Source of the DNA: Bdellovibrionales bacterium
GTDB lineage: Bacteria > Bdellovibrionota > Bdellovibrionia > Bdellovibrionales > UBA1609
NCBI GenBank assembly: GCA_963692945.1
Contig: OY843585.1
Coordinates: 150,001 to 182,000 of the forward strand
DNA length: 32,000 nt
Direction: 5' to 3'
Part shown: positions 756 to 32,000 of the stretch, one piece after another
How the letters are laid out: the number at the start of each line of letters is the position of its first letter
How positions within the stretch are numbered: the stretch's first letter is position 1
Notes under the pieces: generated by a model
The model's input: only the letters and a program-made list of their open reading frames with translations
The model's database searches: none
What the model was told of the DNA's origin: nothing
Position numbers and translations under genes: made by a program

Positions 756-2126
756 ATGCTTTCTTTAATAAAACATATTTTTATCTTTCTTACTCTGTCT
801 TCTTCCCTTTGCTTTGGAAAAATCTATGTCAACATAGGTTCTCCTAAAATTAAAAAAAGCGTTATTGCTCTTTCTCCTTTTATTCTAAGAGATGTTCAGC
901 CTAATAGAATGAAATTAAATTTGGGAAAAAATATAAATAGACATTTAAATAAAAATCTAAATTTTTCTAGTTACTTTAAACTTTTATCTCCAAAAGCTTT
1001 TATTGAACACCCATCTGAAGTCTCTTCTATCCCTTATCCTAAAGACCCTAATGGTTTTCGTTGGAAAAATTGGAAGCTCAATGGGACTGATTTTCTTTTT
1101 TTTGGATATTACTCTATTGTAAAATCACAATTGATCCTAAATGTTTCTCTTTATAATATAAATTTACAAAATCTTGTTTTCCGAAAGAAATACTCAGCGG
1201 AAATCTCTAATGCCAAATCAGTTATAAATACACTCTCAAATGATATTGTTAAAAGTTTAAGTGGCACACAAGGAATCTTTAATACAAAAATTGTCAGTAC
1301 TAGAAGCACCTCTGGATCAAAAAAAGAGCTTTTTGTTATGAATTGGGATGGCAGTCAGCAAAAAAGACTAAGCTATCATCGCTCTATTGTGCTTTCACCC
1401 TCTTGGTCTCCTAATGGAAACCAAATTGCCTATACTGCTTTTGTCTATAACACAAAATTAAAAAAGAGAATGACAGCTCTTTTTCTTTTAGACTTAACTA
1501 CAAATAAGATTAAACTCCTGTCTAATAGAAATGGAGCCAATTTAGGAGCTGACTTTTTTCCTAATGGAAGAGAGTTATTAATCACTTTAGGATTGGGTTC
1601 AGGTTCTATGGATATTTTTAAAATGAACATCTCCTCTGCTTCTATCAAAGCTCTTACAAGAGGCCCCAGAGGTGCCATCAATGTAGAACCATCTATACAT
1701 CCTAAAAGTAAGCTCATTGCTTTCTCCTCAGACAAAAGCGGGAAAACAATGATTTACACTATGACTAGATATGGAACCCAGATCAAAAGAATCACTTTTG
1801 CTGGACACTATAACTCCACACCAGATTGGGACCCTAAGGGTCGTAGAGTTGTTTTCTCTGGTCAAGATAAAGGGAGGTTTGATCTTTTTATAGTTAACTC
1901 TAATGGAACGGGATTAAAAAGATTAACAAGTTTAAAAAAGTTTAATGGAAAGTGGGCAAATTGTGAATCTCCAAGTTTCTCACCCGATGGAAGATTTATA
2001 GTTTTTAGTAGTGATCTATCTGGAACTTATCAACTCTACATAATGAATGTAGATGATTTATCTATTGAAAGAATCACTTTTGATCGCTACAATTACAAAT
2101 CTCCAAAATGGTCTCCTTACCTATAG
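756..2126 (+). CDS. tolB: Tol-Pal system periplasmic beta-propeller protein TolB
   Basis: Signal peptide, then repeated WSPNG/FSPDG...IAF/VFSSD..G...LY blades. GGAG lies 8 nt upstream of the ATG. Confidence 0.85.
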   Translation: MLSLIKHIFIFLTLSSSLCFGKIYVNIGSPKIKKSVIALSPFILRDVQPNRMKLNLGKNINRHLNKNLNFSSYFKLLSPKAFIEHPSEVSSIPYPKDPNGFRWKNWKLNGTDFLFFGYYSIVKSQLILNVSLYNINLQNLVFRKKYSAEISNAKSVINTLSNDIVKSLSGTQGIFNTKIVSTRSTSGSKKELFVMNWDGSQQKRLSYHRSIVLSPSWSPNGNQIAYTAFVYNTKLKKRMTALFLLDLTTNKIKLLSNRNGANLGADFFPNGRELLITLGLGSGSMDIFKMNISSASIKALTRGPRGAINVEPSIHPKSKLIAFSSDKSGKTMIYTMTRYGTQIKRITFAGHYNSTPDWDPKGRRVVFSGQDKGRFDLFIVNSNGTGLKRLTSLKKFNGKWANCESPSFSPDGRFIVFSSDLSGTYQLYIMNVDDLSIERITFDRYNYKSPKWSPYL

Positions 2127-8122: not shown

Positions 8123-8908
8123 TTAAGTCTTATAACCTATTAACATAAATCTTGTATATTTTTCTAAATCTAAATGCCCTTCATAAATCAAACGTCCCAT
8201 AGAGGCCATCTTTTTAAATTCTTCTAGAGAAGAAACACAATTCACATGCTCTTTAAGACCTTTATAGTTATTACTTTGTAAAATAATTAGTTTTTCAGCT
8301 GGAATCTTATCCCACCATTCTTTAAATTTTTCTATATGTTCACAAGATGTATTAATAATTGTATCTGGAACCATGGTTAATTTCTCAGATTCTCCATTAA
8401 ATTTCAAAGTTGTAAAAGTTTCTCCAGCATAATGAATATCTAAAATATTTTTTAAAGTGGCTTTAAACTTCCAGTTATCCTTTACAAAATAACGATTGAT
8501 ATCTTCTGACACTTTGACACTCAATTCATCTATTTCAAAAAGAAAAATATTCTTAGTAGAAAAAAAAGAATCTCTGAAAAAAAGAAAAGCCAAAAATCCA
8601 TACCAGCCAGCACATAAAGCCACAATCCCTAGATTTGATATTCCTTTTTCTTTTAAAACCTTTAATATCCACTCCTTTGACTGTAGCTGACCACGAGAGG
8701 TTGCTTTTTTTAAACCCTGAATAATTTCTGAACTATGAGCTTTAAAGTATTCTGATTCTAAAACCCTTTTTAATCCTTTTAAATAAGTTGTAGTAAAGAA
8801 GGGCTTCTTTTCCGATAAGCTTTGAGATTCTTCTAAATGAAGCGAAGGTTGATAGATCGCTTCAAACAAAGTAAAAAGATCAGATGTTGATTTGTTATTT
8901 TTTTCCAT
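8123..8908 (-). CDS. Hypothetical protein with weak class-I (Rossmann) methyltransferase-like features
   Basis: 261-aa ORF inside the operon. IVALCAGWYGFL (a G-x-G-like loop), an acidic FEID and DTIINTSCEH resemble SAM-methyltransferase motifs I, II and IV. No firm family assignment. Confidence 0.5.
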   Translation of the reverse strand: MEKNNKSTSDLFTLFEAIYQPSLHLEESQSLSEKKPFFTTTYLKGLKRVLESEYFKAHSSEIIQGLKKATSRGQLQSKEWILKVLKEKGISNLGIVALCAGWYGFLAFLFFRDSFFSTKNIFLFEIDELSVKVSEDINRYFVKDNWKFKATLKNILDIHYAGETFTTLKFNGESEKLTMVPDTIINTSCEHIEKFKEWWDKIPAEKLIILQSNNYKGLKEHVNCVSSLEEFKKMASMGRLIYEGHLDLEKYTRFMLIGYKT

Positions 8909-11662: not shown

Positions 11663-12560
11663 AAACTAAATAAAAAAACCACTTATCCATAATAGGCACA
11701 GACAAATAAACTATAATACTTAAGTTGATCCATAAAAAAAATCTTAACCATTTTGTTTGATGATTCAAATAATGATAAAATTCATAAATGATTTTTAAAA
11801 CGAGAGGGCATAGAAGAAAAATATACATCAAACCGGCTCTCAAAAATAATGGAGAGATGAGAGCTAAACCTACATAAGCAAGCATATAAAAACCCATTTC
11901 ATAAATGGTTTTTTGAAATCCATAAATGACAGGTAAAACAGGAACCCCTGCTTGATTGTAATCTTCTTTATATCGGATGGCTAAGCTCCAAAAATGTGGC
12001 ATTTGCCACAGAAACATAAGTAAAAAAAGATACACACATTCTGTTGAAAAAAGATTGTTGTTTGAAAGAGAGTATCCAATAACAGGAGGTAAGGCACCAG
12101 GGATAGCACCAAAAACAGCTCCATGACTAAGTCGTTTCTTCCAAAAAAGAGTGTAAAAAACATTGTATAAAAAAACGGTCAAGAGAGCTAAAAAAGATGT
12201 TAAAGGTTTTAATAGAAATAATAAAAAACCACCAAAAACAATCATGGTAAAAGCCAAGACATAACCTTGAAGAGGAGATAAACTTCCTCTTGCAATCGGT
12301 CTCCTTTTGGTTCTTTCCATTTTCTGATCCAATCTCCATTCTTGAGATTGATTCAATACAAAACTTCCACTAGAAACAAGATAAAGACCTACAAGGAAAA
12401 AAAGAAAAATCTCTGTAGAAAAAATGGAAATCTCATTTAAAGATAAAAAATAGCCTGCACTGGCTGTTAATAAAACAAAGATAACTATGCCAAATTTAGT
12501 TATTCTTATAAAATCTTTTAGTAAATGTTTCATAATTTTTTTAAAACTAACTTGTCCCAT
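11655..12560 (-). CDS. ctaB: Protoheme IX farnesyltransferase (heme O synthase)
   Basis: UbiA-type polytopic protein (NQSQEWRLD...RTKRRP) sitting directly downstream of the oxidase genes. Confidence 0.85.
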   Translation of the reverse strand: MGQVSFKKIMKHLLKDFIRITKFGIVIFVLLTASAGYFLSLNEISIFSTEIFLFFLVGLYLVSSGSFVLNQSQEWRLDQKMERTKRRPIARGSLSPLQGYVLAFTMIVFGGFLLFLLKPLTSFLALLTVFLYNVFYTLFWKKRLSHGAVFGAIPGALPPVIGYSLSNNNLFSTECVYLFLLMFLWQMPHFWSLAIRYKEDYNQAGVPVLPVIYGFQKTIYEMGFYMLAYVGLALISPLFLRAGLMYIFLLCPLVLKIIYEFYHYLNHQTKWLRFFLWINLSIIVYLSVPIMDKWFFYLVYE

Positions 12561-26509: not shown

Positions 26510-26672
26510 AATCTCTCTTTCAAAATAAATTTCTTAACCACAAAGATATAATATAAATTTAAATAAAAATCCATAAGCTATTTATATGTATGTAAAAATT
26601 TCCTGTTTGTTTATTTTAGATCCGATGAACTTAAGGGTTTATGTCCTAACAGGAAAAAAATTCATTTTCATT

Positions 26673-26699
26673 GAAAAAATAAAAAGCTTTCGCTTCCCC
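26673..26699 (-). terminator. Second (distal, truncated) copy of the tRNA-spacer terminator hairpin
   Basis: Part of the 90-nt direct repeat 26670-26759 = 26929-27018. The GGGGAAGC-GAAA-GCTTTT stem-loop on the minus strand is followed by a T-run. Confidence 0.3.
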
Positions 26700-26738
26700 T
26701 TTTTTTAATTTAGTAAATATTTATTTTTCCGTGTAAAA

Positions 26739-26898
26739 TGGCGGAGAGGGAGGGATTCGCCTACTACATTCCCTCGCATCCAGCTCACTCATTGCGTAGG
26801 CTCACCTCAATCACTAAGAAAAACTTCCTGTTTTTCTTCCCAGTATTCCTTGCTCCTAAAGTCGCAAGCAACACAGGTCGTTCTTTCGTTTCGAATCC
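26739..26898 (-). repeat. tRNA-tagged module, copy A: 139-nt GC-rich core (26760-26898) plus a 21-nt copy of the tRNA-Ser 3' end (26739-26759)
   Basis: The core is nearly identical to 30227-30365 and 30409-30547 in inverted orientation. TGGCGGAGAGGGAGGGATTCG is identical to 26998-27018 of the intact tRNA-Ser gene. Confidence 0.9.
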
Positions 26899-27089
<191 letters not shown>

Positions 27090-27246: not shown

Positions 27247-27323
27247 GTGCCCGTAGCTCAATTGGATAGAGCATCTGACTACGGATCAGAAGGTTAGGGG
27301 TTCAACTCCTCTCGGGCACGCCA
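27247..27323 (+). tRNA. tRNA-Arg (anticodon ACG), CCA encoded
   Basis: Acceptor GTGCCCG/CGGGCAC, anticodon stem TCTGA/TCAGA with loop CTACGGA, and T-arm AGGGG-TTCAACT-CCTCT. Confidence 0.95.
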
Positions 27324-29650: not shown

Positions 29651-29926
29651 ATGTTTTCCAAGTTCTTCTTAAAATCTAAAAATAAAGACCTTGCATTTTT
29701 AATCATCCAAATTCATTTATTAGTCTTCATTCTTGTTGGGGTTTTATGGTCTATGTCCAGACTCAATCAAGGGTCTCCTTCTTTTTTAACAATGCTTTTT
29801 TCTGGTAAAAATCATTCACAAATTCAAGCCAAAGATCAAAAAAGGTCTGCTACTATTGTTTCTCCTGATAAAAAAAAACCCTCCACAATTCATAATATAG
29901 ATTTTCAAAATCCTCCAAAAAAATAA
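29651..29926 (+). CDS. Small hypothetical membrane protein
   Basis: The ATG at 29651 is preceded by GAGG. One TM helix (LAFLIIQIHLLVFILVGVLW) and no recognisable family. The longest ORF starts at the TTG at 29585. Confidence 0.3.
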   Translation: MFSKFFLKSKNKDLAFLIIQIHLLVFILVGVLWSMSRLNQGSPSFLTMLFSGKNHSQIQAKDQKRSATIVSPDKKKPSTIHNIDFQNPPKK

Positions 29927-30049
29927 AGAATGGTCTTCCATTTTATAATAAGTGTTATTCTATATAATGAGAGTTCCCTATAAAATCCGATAAAAAGTAA
30001 GGACTGCTCTTGAAAATAAGTTTAGTTTTATATAGGATGGTTTTTATTC

Positions 30050-30125
<76 letters not shown>

Positions 30126-30226
30126 TTTTTAAACGGAAAAATAAATATTTACTAAATTAAAAAAAGGGGAAGCGAAAGCTTTCTATTTTTTTAATTTATT
30201 ACTGCTTTAAATAGGTAGAGGTTGTA
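30126..30226 (+). repeat. Spacer module downstream of tRNA-Asn, an inverted copy of 26899-26997
   Basis: TTTTTAAACGGAAAAATAAATATTTACTAAATTAAAAAAAGGGGAAGCGAAAGCTTTCTATTTTTTTAATTTATTACTGCTTTAAATAGGTAGAGGTT matches the reverse complement of the tRNA-Ser spacer with only a few differences. Confidence 0.85.
30166..30192 (+). terminator. Terminator-like hairpin downstream of tRNA-Asn (possibly bidirectional)
   Basis: GGGGAAGC (30166-30173), GAAA loop, GCTTTC (30178-30183), then TATTTTTTT. An A-run precedes the stem. Confidence 0.5.
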
Positions 30227-30386
30227 GGACTTGAAACGAAAGAACGACCTGTGTTGCTTGCGACTTTAGGAGCAAGGAATACTGGGAAGAAAAACAGGAT
30301 GTTTTTCTTAGTGACTGAGGTGAGCCTACGCAATGAGTGAGCTGGATGCGAGGGAATGTAGTAGGCAAGTCCCTCCGCCTGAGCCA
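30227..30386 (+). repeat. tRNA-tagged module, copy B1: 139-nt core (30227-30365) plus an exact 21-nt copy of the tRNA-Asn 3' end (30366-30386)
   Basis: CAAGTCCCTCCGCCTGAGCCA is identical to 30105-30125. By hand count the core has 65 G+C in 139 nt. Internal 9-bp hairpin at 30287-30309. Confidence 0.9.
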
Positions 30387-30408
30387 TTTACAAAAAACAA
30401 AACTTATT

Positions 30409-30568
30409 GGACTTGAAACGAAGGAACGACCTGTGTTGCTTGCGACTTTAGGAGCAAGGAATACAGGGAAGAAAAACAGGATGTTTTTCTTAGTGACTGA
30501 GGTGAGCCTACGCAATGAGTGAGCTGGATGCGAGGGAATGTAGTAGGCAAGCCCCTCCGCCTGAGCCA
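30409..30568 (+). repeat. tRNA-tagged module, copy B2: core (30409-30547) plus a 21-nt tRNA-Asn 3' end copy with one mismatch (30548-30568)
   Basis: Tandem to B1 after a 22-nt linker, with 3 substitutions in 160 nt. Both tags are followed by TTTACAAAA. Confidence 0.9.
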
Positions 30569-30577
30569 TTTACAAAA

Positions 30578-30946
30578 CTCTAGTTCAGTTAAGGTAAATT
30601 TCTACTCTTATTCTAACGAGCTTTTCATCGCAAGAGAGACGCTCTTCAAATCTCGTTAGAATAAAAGTTACTTAATAGGCTTATGTTTGAACTAGAGAAA
30701 AACTGCTGTTTTTCGCATATTAATTTAGGAGGTTTTCATCGTAAGAGGGACACTCTTCAAATCTCGTTAAAATAAAAGATTTAAACATAGAGAAAAACTA
30801 CGGTTTTTCGCATATGGGTAATCTCTTCAAGTTCAGAAAATAAGAAAGGTATTCCTAGAGAAAAACTGCTGTTTTTCGCATATTAGTAATCTCTTCAAAT
30901 CTCATTAAAATAAGAGTTGCTTAATAGGTTTATGCTTGAACTAGAG
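30578..30946. repeat. Mosaic of four degenerate tandem units built from shared sub-repeats; the first unit is a ~120-nt imperfect palindrome (MITE-like)
   Basis: The sub-repeat CTAGAGAAAAAC-NNNN-GTTTTTCGCATAT occurs at 30692, 30787 and 30855. CTCTTCAAATCTCGTTA(G/A)AATAAAAG occurs at 30642, 30753, 30823 and 30891. TT(A/G)CTTAATAGG.TTATG.TTGAACTAGAG occurs at 30668 and 30917. The inverted ends are CTCTAGTTCA (30578) and TGAACTAGAG (30688, 30937). Confidence 0.8.
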
Positions 30947-30962
30947 TTTTTTATCATAGACT

Positions 30963-32000
30963 CTACTTTGATGAGAACTTAATGTTATTATCTCTCAAAA
31001 ACTTTTTTACATCGTTAATCGCTATAGCAAAATTTAAATTTTGTGTAGCAACAATATGATCTATAATCAAAACAGGAACACCTATAACCTCTTGAGTACT
31101 CTCTAAAAATAAAGCACCACCACTGTTTCCAGAAGACGTTGGACTTGTGTATTGGATATAATTACGATGCTCTTCTTTGCGGATTTGTGAGATATACCCT
31201 TTAGTCAATGTCCCACGAAGACCTTGAGGAGATCCTGAAACTACAACTTCTTGTAAAAGTTCCAAGTTATCAGAATTTCCTAGTTTCACAGGGATCCCTA
31301 CAGGTTTATCTATTTGTAAAACCGCTAAATCCTTTGTTGAATCTATAGCTAAAATTTCTTTAACTACAAATTCCCGTCCATCAAAAAGACGAACTATATA
31401 CTTTGTTTCATATTCATGGTCTTTAATCCTCTCTTTAGAAGGTTGAACAACATGGTAATTGGTTACAATCTTATCTTTATCAACAAAAAAACCACTCCCT
31501 AAACCACCTATTTGTTTCCTCATGTTGTTTTCTATCATTTCCATAATCTCTTCTAGCTCTCTATTAGTGTCATCATCATCTTCTTCTTCCTTCACACTTC
31601 CTATGTCTTCCATCACACTTCTTACGTCTTCAACCAACTTTTCTATTTCTTTTTTTCTCTCTTTTTCTCTCTCTTCATCCTTATAAGTTGCTTTTTCAAT
31701 AGACGTAATTGTCACAACAGAATTTAAAAAAACATGACTAGATATCTTTGCATCTTCAAGGTCTTCCATTTTTACATCTGGTAAATCAAGAACTTCTTCC
31801 ACATTGTATAAAGACACATTTGAAGCCACACCTGCACCTATACCTCCACAAATAACAGGAGCCTTCAAAATTCCAGGTAATAAAAACATTCCAACTGTCG
31901 TTAACCCATAAAGCAATACTTTAGGATCTTTAGTTACAATGTGTTTCCCTGTTTGATAAGATGTGAAACAAGCTACACCATTTAAAGCAAGAGATGTCCA
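30963..32000 (-). CDS. Trypsin-like (S1/DegP-type) serine protease with a hydrophobic N-terminal region and an acidic linker; the 5' end probably lies beyond the window
   Basis: Catalytic motifs TNYHVV (His), DLAVLQI (Asp) and GNSGGALF (Ser). The frame stays open from 31916 to the window end; a TTG at 31916 or a downstream ATG are alternative starts. Confidence 0.75.
   Translation of the reverse strand, partial: WTSLALNGVACFTSYQTGKHIVTKDPKVLLYGLTTVGMFLLPGILKAPVICGGIGAGVASNVSLYNVEEVLDLPDVKMEDLEDAKISSHVFLNSVVTITSIEKATYKDEEREKERKKEIEKLVEDVRSVMEDIGSVKEEEDDDDTNRELEEIMEMIENNMRKQIGGLGSGFFVDKDKIVTNYHVVQPSKERIKDHEYETKYIVRLFDGREFVVKEILAIDSTKDLAVLQIDKPVGIPVKLGNSDNLELLQEVVVSGSPQGLRGTLTKGYISQIRKEEHRNYIQYTSPTSSGNSGGALFLESTQEVIGVPVLIIDHIVATQNLNFAIAINDVKKFLRDNNIKFSSK

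Follow-up and report, generated by a model that had tools for sequence, protein, structure and literature searches.

The window, a 32,000-nt stretch of a Bdellovibrionales genome, contains three copies of a module that occupies the 3′ trailers of two tRNA genes, and a homologous module follows tRNA-fMet at a locus of a distant relative (L015). These modules are best read as a new family of tRNA-trailer RNAs that resembles RtT and has spread to several tRNA loci. More precisely, they would constitute a lineage-restricted family of structured non-coding modules of ~150 nt, which lie in tRNA 3′ trailers on the tRNA strand and are built like RtT, a reading that we hold with about even confidence. 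It is based on the observed anatomy, conservation, covariation and strand of the modules, on the empty sites in relatives and on the tracking of three tRNAs.

Modules downstream of tRNA-Asn and tRNA-Ser

The intact tRNA-Asn(GUU) gene (30050–30125, plus strand; anticodon GTT in the DNA; 69.2 bits) encodes its CCA end and lies downstream of a candidate sigma-70-like promoter (30010–30038, plus strand; TTGAAA-17-TAGGAT, consensus match only). It is followed on the same strand by an AT-rich trailer (spacer S, 30126–30193) with a terminator-like hairpin (30167–30184) and a T-run, and by a linker (linker L, 30194–30226) that is common to the Asn and Ser loci, as judged from its identity with the Ser locus. 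Between tRNA-Asn and the module, no promoter-like site was detected. The first module (unit 1; 30227–30386, plus strand, 160 nt, 193.6 bits) consists of helices P1, P2, P3 and P4 and a terminal tag. It begins with a 9-mer, GGACTTGAA (30227–30235), which is the reverse complement of T54–C62 of tRNA-Asn and matches the tRNA at 9/9 and the tag at 7/7 positions. The first 7 nt of this 9-mer pair with 30366–30372 to form P1, a helix that was also predicted independently by RNAalifold. P2 (30248–30285), P3 (30287–30309) and P4 (30324–30366) follow, and the 14-nt apical loop of P4, AUGAGUGAGCUGGA (30333–30346), is the same in all window copies and in the fMet copy of L015. The tag, CAAGTCCCTCCGCCTGAGCCA (30366–30386), is a copy of C56–A76 of tRNA-Asn (30105–30125).

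A linker of 22 nt (30387–30408), the first 9 nt of which (TTTACAAAA) recur after the second module, leads to unit 2 (30409–30568, plus strand, 160 nt, 192.5 bits). The 139-nt core of unit 1 (30227–30365) recurs in unit 2 (30409–30547) with exactly two substitutions (30241 A/G and 30283 T/A), and the tag of unit 2 (30548–30568) carries one T>C change, with one P1 pair broken. The two units look like a local tandem duplication. The G+C content of the core is 46.8% (65/139), compared with 22.8% in the spacer and 32.1% in the whole window, and a 20-mer from the core occurs three times in the window, where shuffles give an expectation of 0.00. The first-pass annotation had placed the core, its repeat, the 21-nt tags, the 22-nt linker and the shared post-tag sequence correctly, and its AT-rich spacer with a terminator-like hairpin, its 9-bp hairpin at 30287–30309 and its estimate of ~47% G+C for the core were likewise confirmed. 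Its description of tandem modules after tRNA-Asn is right for the two copies present there but incomplete, as a third resides at tRNA-Ser.

On the minus strand, the intact tRNA-Ser(GCU) gene (26998–27089; anticodon GCT in the DNA) is followed by spacer S and linker L (26899–26997), including a terminator-like hairpin (26957–26940), and then by the third full module of the window (26739–26898, minus strand, 191.6 bits). The 5′ 9-mer of this module, GGATTCGAA, is the reverse complement of T54–C62 of tRNA-Ser (9/9), and its tag, CGAATCCCTCCCTCTCCGCCA, is identical to C56–A76, the last 21 nt of that same tRNA. The Ser core is 97% identical to that of unit 1. The loop of the 9-bp hairpin had been taken as the only difference between the two loci, but the Ser copy also differs from the Asn core at 30315 (C/T) as well as at 30230 and 30232, which belong to the core's 5′ end.

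A second copy of spacer S lies past the Ser tag (26670–26738, minus strand; 97% identity over 69 nt), so that the duplicated segment at the Ser locus extends from C56 to ~64 nt past CCA. The spacer after tRNA-Asn is nearly identical to both the tRNA-Ser trailer and this post-tag sequence, and the AT-rich spacer with its hairpin is thus a repeat present in three copies (30126–30193, 26929–26997 and 26670–26738). In two of the three window copies, the terminator-like hairpin is located between the tRNA and the module. Linker L shows a weak alignment to the stretch of tRNA-Ser that spans the anticodon arm to the T-loop (p ~0.005 when the 9-mer is counted in); in a proxy test that combined this linker with the Asn 9-mer, which does not match, the value was ~0.09. 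This alignment is suggestive only; linker L may possibly be what is left, in decayed form, of the 5′ portion of a tRNA-Ser copy.

Correspondence between modules and adjoining tRNAs

Each of the three window modules, which are distributed to two tRNAs, carries as its tag the last 21 nt of the adjoining tRNA (with one change in unit 2). The 5′ 9-mer is the reverse complement of T54–C62 of the adjoining tRNA at 9/9 positions in the Asn, Ser and fMet (L015) contexts, and the fMet 9-mer fits its tRNA better than it fits its own tag. P1, which comprises 6–7 bp, changes along with the tRNA. An analogy with guide RNAs had been drawn earlier for the 3′ tag; the guide-like segment is instead the 5′ 9-mer, which is complementary to the T-loop. 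The junction between module and tag falls at T-loop position 55|56 (T55|C56) in every module, and all copies and remnants are downstream of a tRNA and co-oriented with it. On its outer side, the duplicated tRNA segment stops at different positions (3, 9 or 64 nt beyond CCA, or 5 nt before the tRNA), and the duplicated segments in the window are 24, 30 or 85 nt long. A MITE or another inverted-repeat DNA transposon was considered and rejected, since the 5′ arm and the tag vary with the tRNA and the length of the duplication is not fixed.

The homologous module after tRNA-fMet in L015 is 71% identical to the window modules overall and 85% identical in the 3′ block, and the scaffold is conserved in this distant relative. 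L015 also contains a mirror-image junction, in which nt 1–55 of tRNA-Gly(GCC), forming a pseudo 5′ fragment, are joined to a module-like sequence of 138 nt, with the intact tRNA next. In three closer relatives (L003, L004 and L005), the tRNA-Asn and tRNA-Ser sites are empty. Because the modules are absent from the same sites of these three closest relatives, any function that they have for the host must be dispensable. Copies are 97–99% identical inside one genome and 61–85% identical between genomes. At loci of four further relatives (L016, L017, L020 and L021) and at the two loci for P0010 (L018 and L019), synteny was lost and at most one tRNA was present in each. A search of 204 kb of relatives with a covariance model of the module (model R1) yielded no further copies, and the matches obtained with nhmmer were limited to the L015 copies and remnants.

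The close correspondence between 9-mer and tRNA raises the possibility, which we regard as tentative, of a non-autonomous, guide-bearing element, i.e. a unit of ~148 nt (9-mer plus core) moved as RNA or ssDNA by an enzyme encoded elsewhere. Its 9-mer would pair with T54–C62 of a tRNA gene and steer insertion between T55 and C56, an event would survive only if the 3′ or 5′ portion of the tRNA were duplicated along with it, so that one intact gene remained, and one or two mutations in the 9-mer would redirect the unit to another tRNA. The 9/9 matches in three tRNA contexts and the better fit of the fMet 9-mer to its tRNA than to its own tag favour such an element, although the T-loop of tRNA-Ser, UUCGAA, is palindromic, so that the 9-mer could have started as a plain direct copy of the T-arm. 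Also in favour is the single-step intermediate between the Ser and Asn 9-mers, GGATTTGAA, which is itself a valid complement of the T-loops of fMet, Gly and Ser(UGA). The constant T55|C56 junction, together with its mirror image at tRNA-Gly(GCC), also fits, and the variable outer end of the duplicated segment would follow from staggered breaks in which one nick is fixed; however, no complete interrupted tRNA (1–55, element, 56–76) was seen, and the Asn copy has the spacer and linker of the Ser locus in front of an Asn-specific 9-mer, a pattern not predicted by simple cut- or copy-and-paste of a fixed unit. The higher identity of copies within than between genomes and the occupation of different tRNAs in different genomes, with the sites of closer relatives empty, are likewise consistent with mobility, but units 1 and 2 resemble a local tandem duplication rather than two insertions, and no candidate enzyme is encoded in the 32 kb or beside the L015 copies. 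A bolder version of this idea, in which a protein-less element is directed by its guide to T55|C56 of tRNA genes and retargeted by 9-mer mutations, and in which E. coli RtT is the fossil of an analogous process, appears somewhat more doubtful.

Conserved structure and database searches

Single-sequence minimum free energy folds disagreed between copies, and comparative analysis was used instead. In a structure model with four helices, 91.5% of cells are paired. Pairs with both sides changed numbered 11, compared with 4.0 ± 1.5 in shuffles (0/500) and 0–4 in slid controls, and RNAalifold, run on an alignment that had not been fitted to the model, recovered P1, P2, P3 and the inner P4 stem with eight compensatory pairs; this covariation derives from three or four independent lineages, and one of the alignments was model-fitted. 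Between the window and the fMet copy of L015, the P4 stem and apical loop (GCCUAC through the 3′ strand of the inner stem) differ by two substitutions, which together form a compensatory change from an A-U to a C-G pair, and the 3′ internal loop adjoining this stretch varies. G-U pairs are restricted to the tRNA-sense strand, and the fold z-score is −3.0. A T-stem-like pairing, GAGGGA:UCCCUC, which might have mimicked a minihelix, is found in the window copies; it is missing from the fMet copy of L015 and is therefore not a feature of the family. Conservation, compensatory changes in the four helices and the strand bias of G-U pairs lend sequence-level support to one of the two explanations offered in the first-pass annotation, namely that the module would be a small RNA made of a conserved scaffold and a tRNA-derived 3′ tag.

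The possibility that the conserved sequence is a small protein gene was also considered and is very improbable. The candidates are a 62-codon ORF on the minus strand (30387–30199), whose start is the complement of CCA, and a short ORF on the plus strand, whose AUG lies in the conserved loop and is preceded by a GAGG box. The former is open in the same frame in the Asn and Ser copies, and the differences between units 1 and 2 are synonymous in it, but its 62-aa product has no homologue among 5.8 billion proteins and no Pfam match, and its ATG lacks an upstream ribosome-binding site. The latter has a GAGGNGAG box ~10 nt ahead of its conserved AUG, and a small ORF (tpr) is annotated within E. coli RtT; however, the plus-strand ORF comprises only 8 codons in L015 (23–27 in the window) and extends into the variable tag. 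Conservation reaches beyond both ORFs and tracks base pairing rather than codons.

The search against Rfam that had been proposed earlier was performed and produced no family match for the modules: with 4227 models at the gathering threshold, only three tRNAs were detected in the whole window, and around the locus (29900–31100) at E ≤ 10 only noise was obtained. ARAGORN did not recognize the module as a tRNA or tmRNA. A blastn search of one unit against phage and plasmid collections returned nothing relevant, and four exact-pattern scans of viral sequences were empty. The exact 20-mer CCTACGCAATGAGTGAGCTG had two chance matches in 185,579 species genomes, both inside a gene that we take, from its ...RRITYAMSELG... 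motif, to encode a GyrA/ParC-type topoisomerase, and the exact 19-mer GCGAGGGAATGTAGTAGGC had seven chance matches in JGI metagenomes, on contigs of 60–65% G+C. Both scans were too strict, since each of the two sequences has one mismatch to the L015 homologue.

The remaining alternative is that the modules are scars left by tyrosine integrases, either attR remnants or cis-mobilizable mini-elements, with the tags as att core repeats and the core as the attR-proximal arm. We consider this unlikely. Integration into tRNA genes usually leaves a stretch of identity that runs from the T-loop to the 3′ end, and partial tRNA genes usually originate in this way (PMC9897764); direct repeats of the tRNA 3′ part, tandem units and empty sites in relatives are all compatible with this origin. 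However, the same core bears Asn, Ser and fMet tags, which is not expected from one attP, and it does so together with a co-varying 5′ 9-mer and a conserved RNA-type structure in which compensatory changes occur and G-U pairs are confined to one strand. To the left of the junction, GTAGTAGG contains no inverted T-stem copy at the expected 7-nt spacing, and no dyad-symmetric core site was present. No integrase, reverse transcriptase or transposase was found near the modules; as the first-pass annotation had noted, the 32 kb contain no recombinase gene, and recombinase domains were detected neither in window ORFs of ≥60 aa nor among the neighbours of the L015 copies (with ~200 kb of relatives covered). 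Integrase-encoding islands at tRNA-Asn in relatives had been named as a potential refutation; the sites in L003, L004 and L005 are clean and empty, no island occurs at these tRNAs in L003, L004, L005 or L015, and the phage, plasmid and viral collections contain no match. The three tags on one core, the co-varying 9-mer, the empty sites and the lack of an integrase also speak against the other explanation of the first-pass annotation, miniature att-bearing cis-mobilizable elements.

If the modules are tRNA-trailer RNAs, as preferred here, they would probably be transcribed by read-through from the tRNA promoter. Such read-through may be weak, since two of the three window copies have the hairpin between tRNA and module and a promoter-like site is lacking in front of the module. 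Excision of the tRNA would free the module, whose 5′ end is predicted to close the fold by pairing with the first 7 nt of the tag (P1); hairpins P2 and P3 would come next, then the P4 stem presenting the 14-nt loop, and the last 14 nt of tRNA sequence would form a single-stranded tail ending in CCA. The 3′ end may be finished and protected by the tRNA 3′-maturation machinery, yielding a discrete, stable RNA whose amount would track transcription of the tRNA operon. Partial duplication, with template-switch recombination at the conserved T-loop, may generate new copies, and recombination between tRNA and tag may remove them, with P1 pairing restored or selected at each change of tag. Host recombination alone leaves unexplained the joint change of the internal 9-mer and the tag between copies with just two other core differences, a point against this reading.

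Comparison with RtT and other known systems

Direct repeats of a tRNA 3′ end starting in the T-loop, possible tandem arrays and empty sites in relatives are features shared with the attL/attR repeats that tyrosine-integrase islands form in tRNA genes (T-loop class). The modules differ from such islands in having several tRNA-specific tags, a co-varying 5′ segment and a conserved RNA structure, and in lacking an integrase or island. Several mobile elements carry guides, including group II introns (EBS-IBS pairing), IS200/IS605 elements (guide–cleavage-site pairing), IS110 (bridge RNA) and TnpB (omega RNA). The resemblance to these is limited to a short internal segment complementary across the insertion point and a structured scaffold. 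Unlike them, the modules have no protein gene with them, show no Rfam match to intron or ribozyme families and are far below intron size, and no tnpB, iscB or IS110-type recombinase gene, such as would accompany an omega or bridge RNA, was found in the window or beside the L015 copies. Were the guide-directed reading true, it would represent a new kind of target-programmable insertion in bacteria.

Another parallel is provided by RNAs released from tRNA operons. In E. coli, the 3′ETS-leuZ sponge is a non-coding RNA derived from the 3′ external spacer of a tRNA operon and freed by tRNA processing (PMC8166272), and rtT RNA, which derives from the tyrT operon, offers a precedent for tRNA-trailer RNAs (bioRxiv 10.1101/2024.07.17.603846). 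The modules would share with 3′ETS-leuZ the origin in such a spacer and the release by tRNA processing.

The link to the RtT repeats of the E. coli tyrT operon was missed in the first-pass annotation. To our knowledge, RtT dates back to the first sequenced tRNA operons, has no agreed origin or function, and until now was one family at one tRNA. RtT (RF00391; gene rttR; 178-bp repeats in the tyrT-tyrV operon) and the modules described here both consist of tandem units of ~130–180 nt in a tRNA trailer on the tRNA strand, and both are G+C-rich and structured. Every unit terminates with a repeat of the tRNA 3′ sequence that starts in the T-loop and includes CCA (21 nt in the modules, 19 nt in E. 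coli). In both, a 5′ segment pairs with the start of the tRNA-derived segment to form a closing helix, leaving a tail ending in CCA, and both contain a small ORF of doubtful meaning (annotated as tpr in E. coli). Sequence or profile similarity is undetectable in either direction: RF00391, which scored 133–138 bits on four E. coli copies in a control with the same library, did not match the window at the gathering threshold or the region 29900–31100 at E ≤ 10, and model R1 scored at most 9 bits on the RtT loci of E. coli and Klebsiella.

The two families also differ in several details. All of the RtT copies examined are associated with tRNA-Tyr at one locus, whereas the new family occurs at least at Asn, Ser and fMet, with remnants at Gly and Ser. 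The closing strand of RtT resembles the native acceptor and T-stem partner, whereas the 5′ strand of the modules complements T-loop nucleotides and thus cannot be a direct tRNA copy, and the junction is located at G57|A58 in E. coli RtT and at T55|C56 here. For comparative work, the constant parts of the modules are the 14-nt loop and P4, the parts that follow the tRNA are the 9-mer and the tag, and the T55|C56 junction provides a further handle; because the modules create partial tRNA genes, annotation may mistake them for integration scars or pseudo-tRNAs. The modules thus represent a second family with the RtT plan, unrelated in sequence, found in a distant phylum and at several tRNAs, and with a closing helix that is rewritten for each tRNA. 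The existence of such a second family indicates that the RtT plan is a recurrent solution rather than an accident of the tyrT locus.

Modules at tRNA genes in the window

The tRNA-Asn(GUU) gene (30050–30125) is directly followed by a 101-nt AT-rich spacer containing a terminator-like hairpin (30167–30184), a 139-nt core (30227–30365) and a copy of the tRNA's final 21 nt (C56–A76; the tag). The core then recurs with two substitutions (30409–30547) and is again followed by the tRNA end, here with one change, and TTTACAAAA lies directly 3' of both tags. All of these elements had been described in the first-pass annotation and are present in the sequence, and its estimate that the core is richer in G+C than its surroundings is borne out (46.8%; spacer, 22.8%; whole window, 32.1%). 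The two modules that it had counted at tRNA-Asn also stand, but a third had been missed: a 20-mer of the core has three occurrences in the window (none in shuffled sequences), the third of which belongs to a full module (26739–26898, minus strand) downstream of tRNA-Ser(GCU) (26998–27089). The core of this module is 97% identical to that of the first Asn copy, whereas its tag, CGAATCCCTCCCTCTCCGCCA, is the 3'-terminal 21 nt of tRNA-Ser instead of those of tRNA-Asn. The hairpin-bearing spacer is itself repeated, being found after tRNA-Asn, after tRNA-Ser and again after the Ser tag. tRNA-Arg(ACG) (27247–27323), also in the window, carries no module.

In every module, nucleotides 1–9 are the reverse complement of T54–C62 of the adjacent tRNA, namely GGACTTGAA against TTCAAGTCC in the Asn modules and GGATTCGAA against TTCGAATCC in the Ser module. 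Besides the tag, the Asn and Ser modules differ at exactly the two matching positions of this 5' segment and at two further positions only, 30300 and 30315. The earlier view that a hairpin loop is the sole part varying between loci was wrong.

The Asn locus (30126–30386) and the Ser locus (26739–26997) form inverted repeats of approximately 260 nt with 95% identity. The repeats are 3.1 kb apart and have tRNA-Ser, tRNA-Arg, two genes and tRNA-Asn between them. They are likely to undergo inversion or gene conversion, which could explain the presence of the Ser-locus spacer and linker at the Asn locus. A 62-codon ORF on the minus strand (30199–30387), whose ATG arises from the complement of CCA together with an adjacent A, is uninterrupted at both the Asn and the Ser locus, and the two substitutions between the Asn units are synonymous in its frame. 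No ribosome-binding site, protein homologue or Pfam match was found for this ORF, and a small protein gene, considered as a candidate and rejected, is an extremely improbable explanation of the module.

Distribution in relatives and at other tRNA genes

The genes neighbouring the modules in the window are ordinary chromosomal genes (encoding SecA, cytochrome c oxidase, TolB, aspartate kinase, ankyrin and TPR proteins, PhaR and a trypsin-like protease), none of which contains an integrase, transposase or reverse-transcriptase domain, in line with the initial remark that the 32 kb hold no recombinase. A glutamate-synthase-domain protein is encoded between the Asn and Ser loci, and its named relatives come from Bdellovibrionales MAGs. 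Three relatives (85, 84 and 79% identity in this protein) retain the gene order and tRNA-Asn, tRNA-Arg and tRNA-Ser(GCU), and neither a module nor a second copy of any tRNA end was found at these tRNAs. These are clean empty sites, and not the integrase-encoding islands at tRNA-Asn that would have marked the modules as deletion remnants. Arrays with a 99-nt period adjoin the tRNA-Ser(GCU) site in two of the three (L003, 12542–13160; L005, 12901–13998), within or beside the ankyrin-type genes called there; each genome compared has its own number and order of ankyrin genes between these tRNAs and phaR.

In the remaining relative, L004, the end of tRNA-Asn is only 14 nt from the protease gene, and therefore the whole of the ~840 nt after tRNA-Asn in the window is extra. 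Directly after the last tag lies a 383-nt block (30571–30953) bounded by 17-nt inverted repeats (TACAAAACTCTAGTTCA ... TGAACTAGAGTTTTTTA) and composed of repeated hairpin-bearing subunits (families D2, D3, D5 and D7). It has no match in Rfam, and a homologous stretch (~79% identity) follows tRNA-Ser(UGA) in L003 (7959–8054). From its sequence, this block seems to represent another family of tRNA-trailer repeats, distinct from the modules.

L015, which is more distantly related (71% identity in the glutamate-synthase-domain protein), carries a homologous module downstream of initiator tRNA-Met, so the core is not confined to this strain. Its 5' 9-mer, GGATTTGAA, is the reverse complement of T54–C62 of that tRNA (9/9), its 3' end is the last 21 nt of tRNA-fMet with one mismatch, and over its whole length it is 71% identical to the window module (5' part, 61%; 3' block, 85%). 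At 8280–8478, a pseudo 5' tRNA-Gly(GCC) fragment (nt 1–55, three substitutions; not called by ARAGORN) is fused, at T55, to 138 nt of module-like sequence in which helices P2 and P3 are retained and the 3' block and tag have been lost. Next comes the intact tRNA-Gly(GCC), and the 5 nt immediately upstream of the tRNA, GATAA, are also duplicated. The P2 region of this copy is 87% identical to the window but 59% identical to the fMet copy of its own genome, which indicates old sub-lineages in the module family. Remnants of the 5' part of the module lie 27 nt behind tRNA-Ser(GCU) and tRNA-Ser(GGA). tRNA-Ser(GGA) and tRNA-Ser(GCU) share a trailer of ~40 nt (GATGTTAGTGTATAAAATAACA...GAGGGGTTC.AA; regions 8677–8725 and 11809–11874, respectively), which behind tRNA-Ser(GCU) runs on into the first half of P2 and then stops; because UUCGAA is palindromic, the 5' segment here can read as a direct copy of the 5' half of the T-arm (GAGGGGTTCGAA).

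Every copy in the window and L015 is co-oriented with a tRNA, with the boundary at T55|C56. This fixed junction, the joint change of internal 9-mer and tag between near-identical copies, the mirror-image arrangement at the Gly locus, the differing outer ends of the duplicated tRNA segments and the patchy distribution would fit an element that encodes no protein and uses its 9-mer as a guide for insertion into the tRNA T-loop; we consider such an element possible, if rather unlikely.

The Rfam search proposed at the outset matched no family, and the module likewise matched no tRNA or tmRNA and nothing among phage, plasmid and viral contigs. Species genomes and JGI metagenomes, scanned for exact words, yielded chance matches only, a weak negative because both words have a one-base mismatch to the L015 copy. 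The most conserved 20–21 nt of the module (CCTACGCAATGAGTGAGCTGG) are identical to the coding sequence for ...TYAMSELG... in two gammaproteobacterial MAGs (L001, 1433–1452; L002, 5247–5266), a motif that we take to be typical of GyrA/ParC. The flanks are unrelated and about one chance match is expected, and this match was dismissed as coincidence.

Secondary structure and possible origin

Comparison of the copies yielded five helical segments: P1, formed by the 5' 6–7 nt and the tag's first 7 nt, P2 (13 bp), P3 (9 bp), P4a (GCCUAC with GUAGGC) and an inner stem, P4b (3 bp). P4 encloses a 14-nt loop, AUGAGUGAGCUGGA, which the L015 fMet copy shares unchanged with the window copies. Over the stretch that begins with the 5' strand of P4a and ends with the 3' strand of P4b, the fMet copy differs from the window copies by only two substitutions, which convert an A-U into a C-G pair. 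In the alignment fitted to the covariance model, standard pairs occupy 91.5% of cells, and 11 pairs changed on both sides, compared with 4.0±1.5 in shuffles (0/500) and 0–4 in slid controls. RNAalifold, applied to a MAFFT alignment not fitted to the model, recovered P1, P2, P3 and the inner P4 stem with eight compensatory pairs. G-U pairs occur only on the tRNA-sense strand. Because the sample comprises only three or four independent lineages, support for a structured RNA transcribed in the tRNA sense is good without being overwhelming.

Within the apical loop (30333–30346; 26779–26792, minus strand), UGAGCUG is complementary to U8–A14 (UAGCUCA), the common 5' strand of the D-stem in many tRNAs, including tRNA-Asn, tRNA-Arg and tRNA-Gly; this complementarity is absent in tRNA-Ser and tRNA-fMet. 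The loop also appears D-loop-like (AGCUGG), and a GAGGNGAG box lies ~10 nt ahead of an AUG in it.

Integrase scars are the textbook reading of partial tRNA genes (PMC9897764), and the first-pass annotation had named a T-loop junction as the known footprint of tyrosine-integrase insertion. The three different tags, the co-varying 5' 9-mer, the conserved RNA structure and the failure to find an integrase or island in the window or at the loci compared in relatives all argue against this origin, which we regard as very unlikely. Our favoured reading, to which we give roughly even chances, is that the module is a tRNA-trailer RNA, for which rtT RNA (10.1101/2024.07.17.603846) and 3'ETS-leuZ (PMC8166272) provide precedents. 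Such an RNA would be transcribed by read-through from the tRNA promoter, released through tRNA processing and finished at the tRNA-like CCA; a promoter-like site lies upstream of tRNA-Asn (30010–30038), and none was found between the tRNA and the module. Modules may be duplicated, transferred and lost via recombination at the conserved T-loop, with P1 maintained by selection or templated correction. The terminator-like hairpin ahead of two copies and the 9-mer that changed in step with the tag speak against a trailer RNA.

Comparison with the RtT repeats of Escherichia coli

The tyrT-tyrV region of E. coli (L013; NC_000913.3, 1286200–1288200), analysed with the same tools, contains four RtT units (RF00391) behind and between two tRNA-Tyr genes. 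The 3' end of every unit is formed by the final 19 nt of tRNA-Tyr, CCA included, with the junction within the T-loop. In the Rfam consensus, a 5' segment, GGGGAAGGA, makes a closing helix with the first part of the tRNA-derived segment, UCCUUCCCC, and a CCA tail is left. The module family follows the same plan, but no sequence or profile similarity was found in either direction, and it is therefore not a member of RF00391.

Within the RtT units (860–1040, minus strand), AAATATTCTGCCCATGCG resembles the anticodon loop and variable arm of tRNA-Tyr and CTTCGACCAAGGTTCGA the 5' half of its T-arm, and a G+C-rich insert of ~66 nt with inverted ends lies in the T-loop ahead of AATCCTTCCCCCACCACCA. 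The RtT unit thus looks like a 5'-truncated pseudo-tRNA-Tyr with a T-loop insertion. The linker ahead of the Ser module shows a weak alignment with the part of tRNA-Ser that extends from anticodon arm to T-loop, which hints that the module may have the same pseudo-tRNA origin.

The feature is real, and the family is wider than the first-pass annotation saw. It is best filed with tRNA-linked repeats of the RtT kind and not as an att scar. RtT has been a single-locus curiosity for 45 years and is linked, as far as seen, to tRNA-Tyr at one locus only, whereas the module family is associated with at least three tRNAs, with the closing helix rewritten for each, and makes repeats of this type a recurrent, comparable phenomenon.
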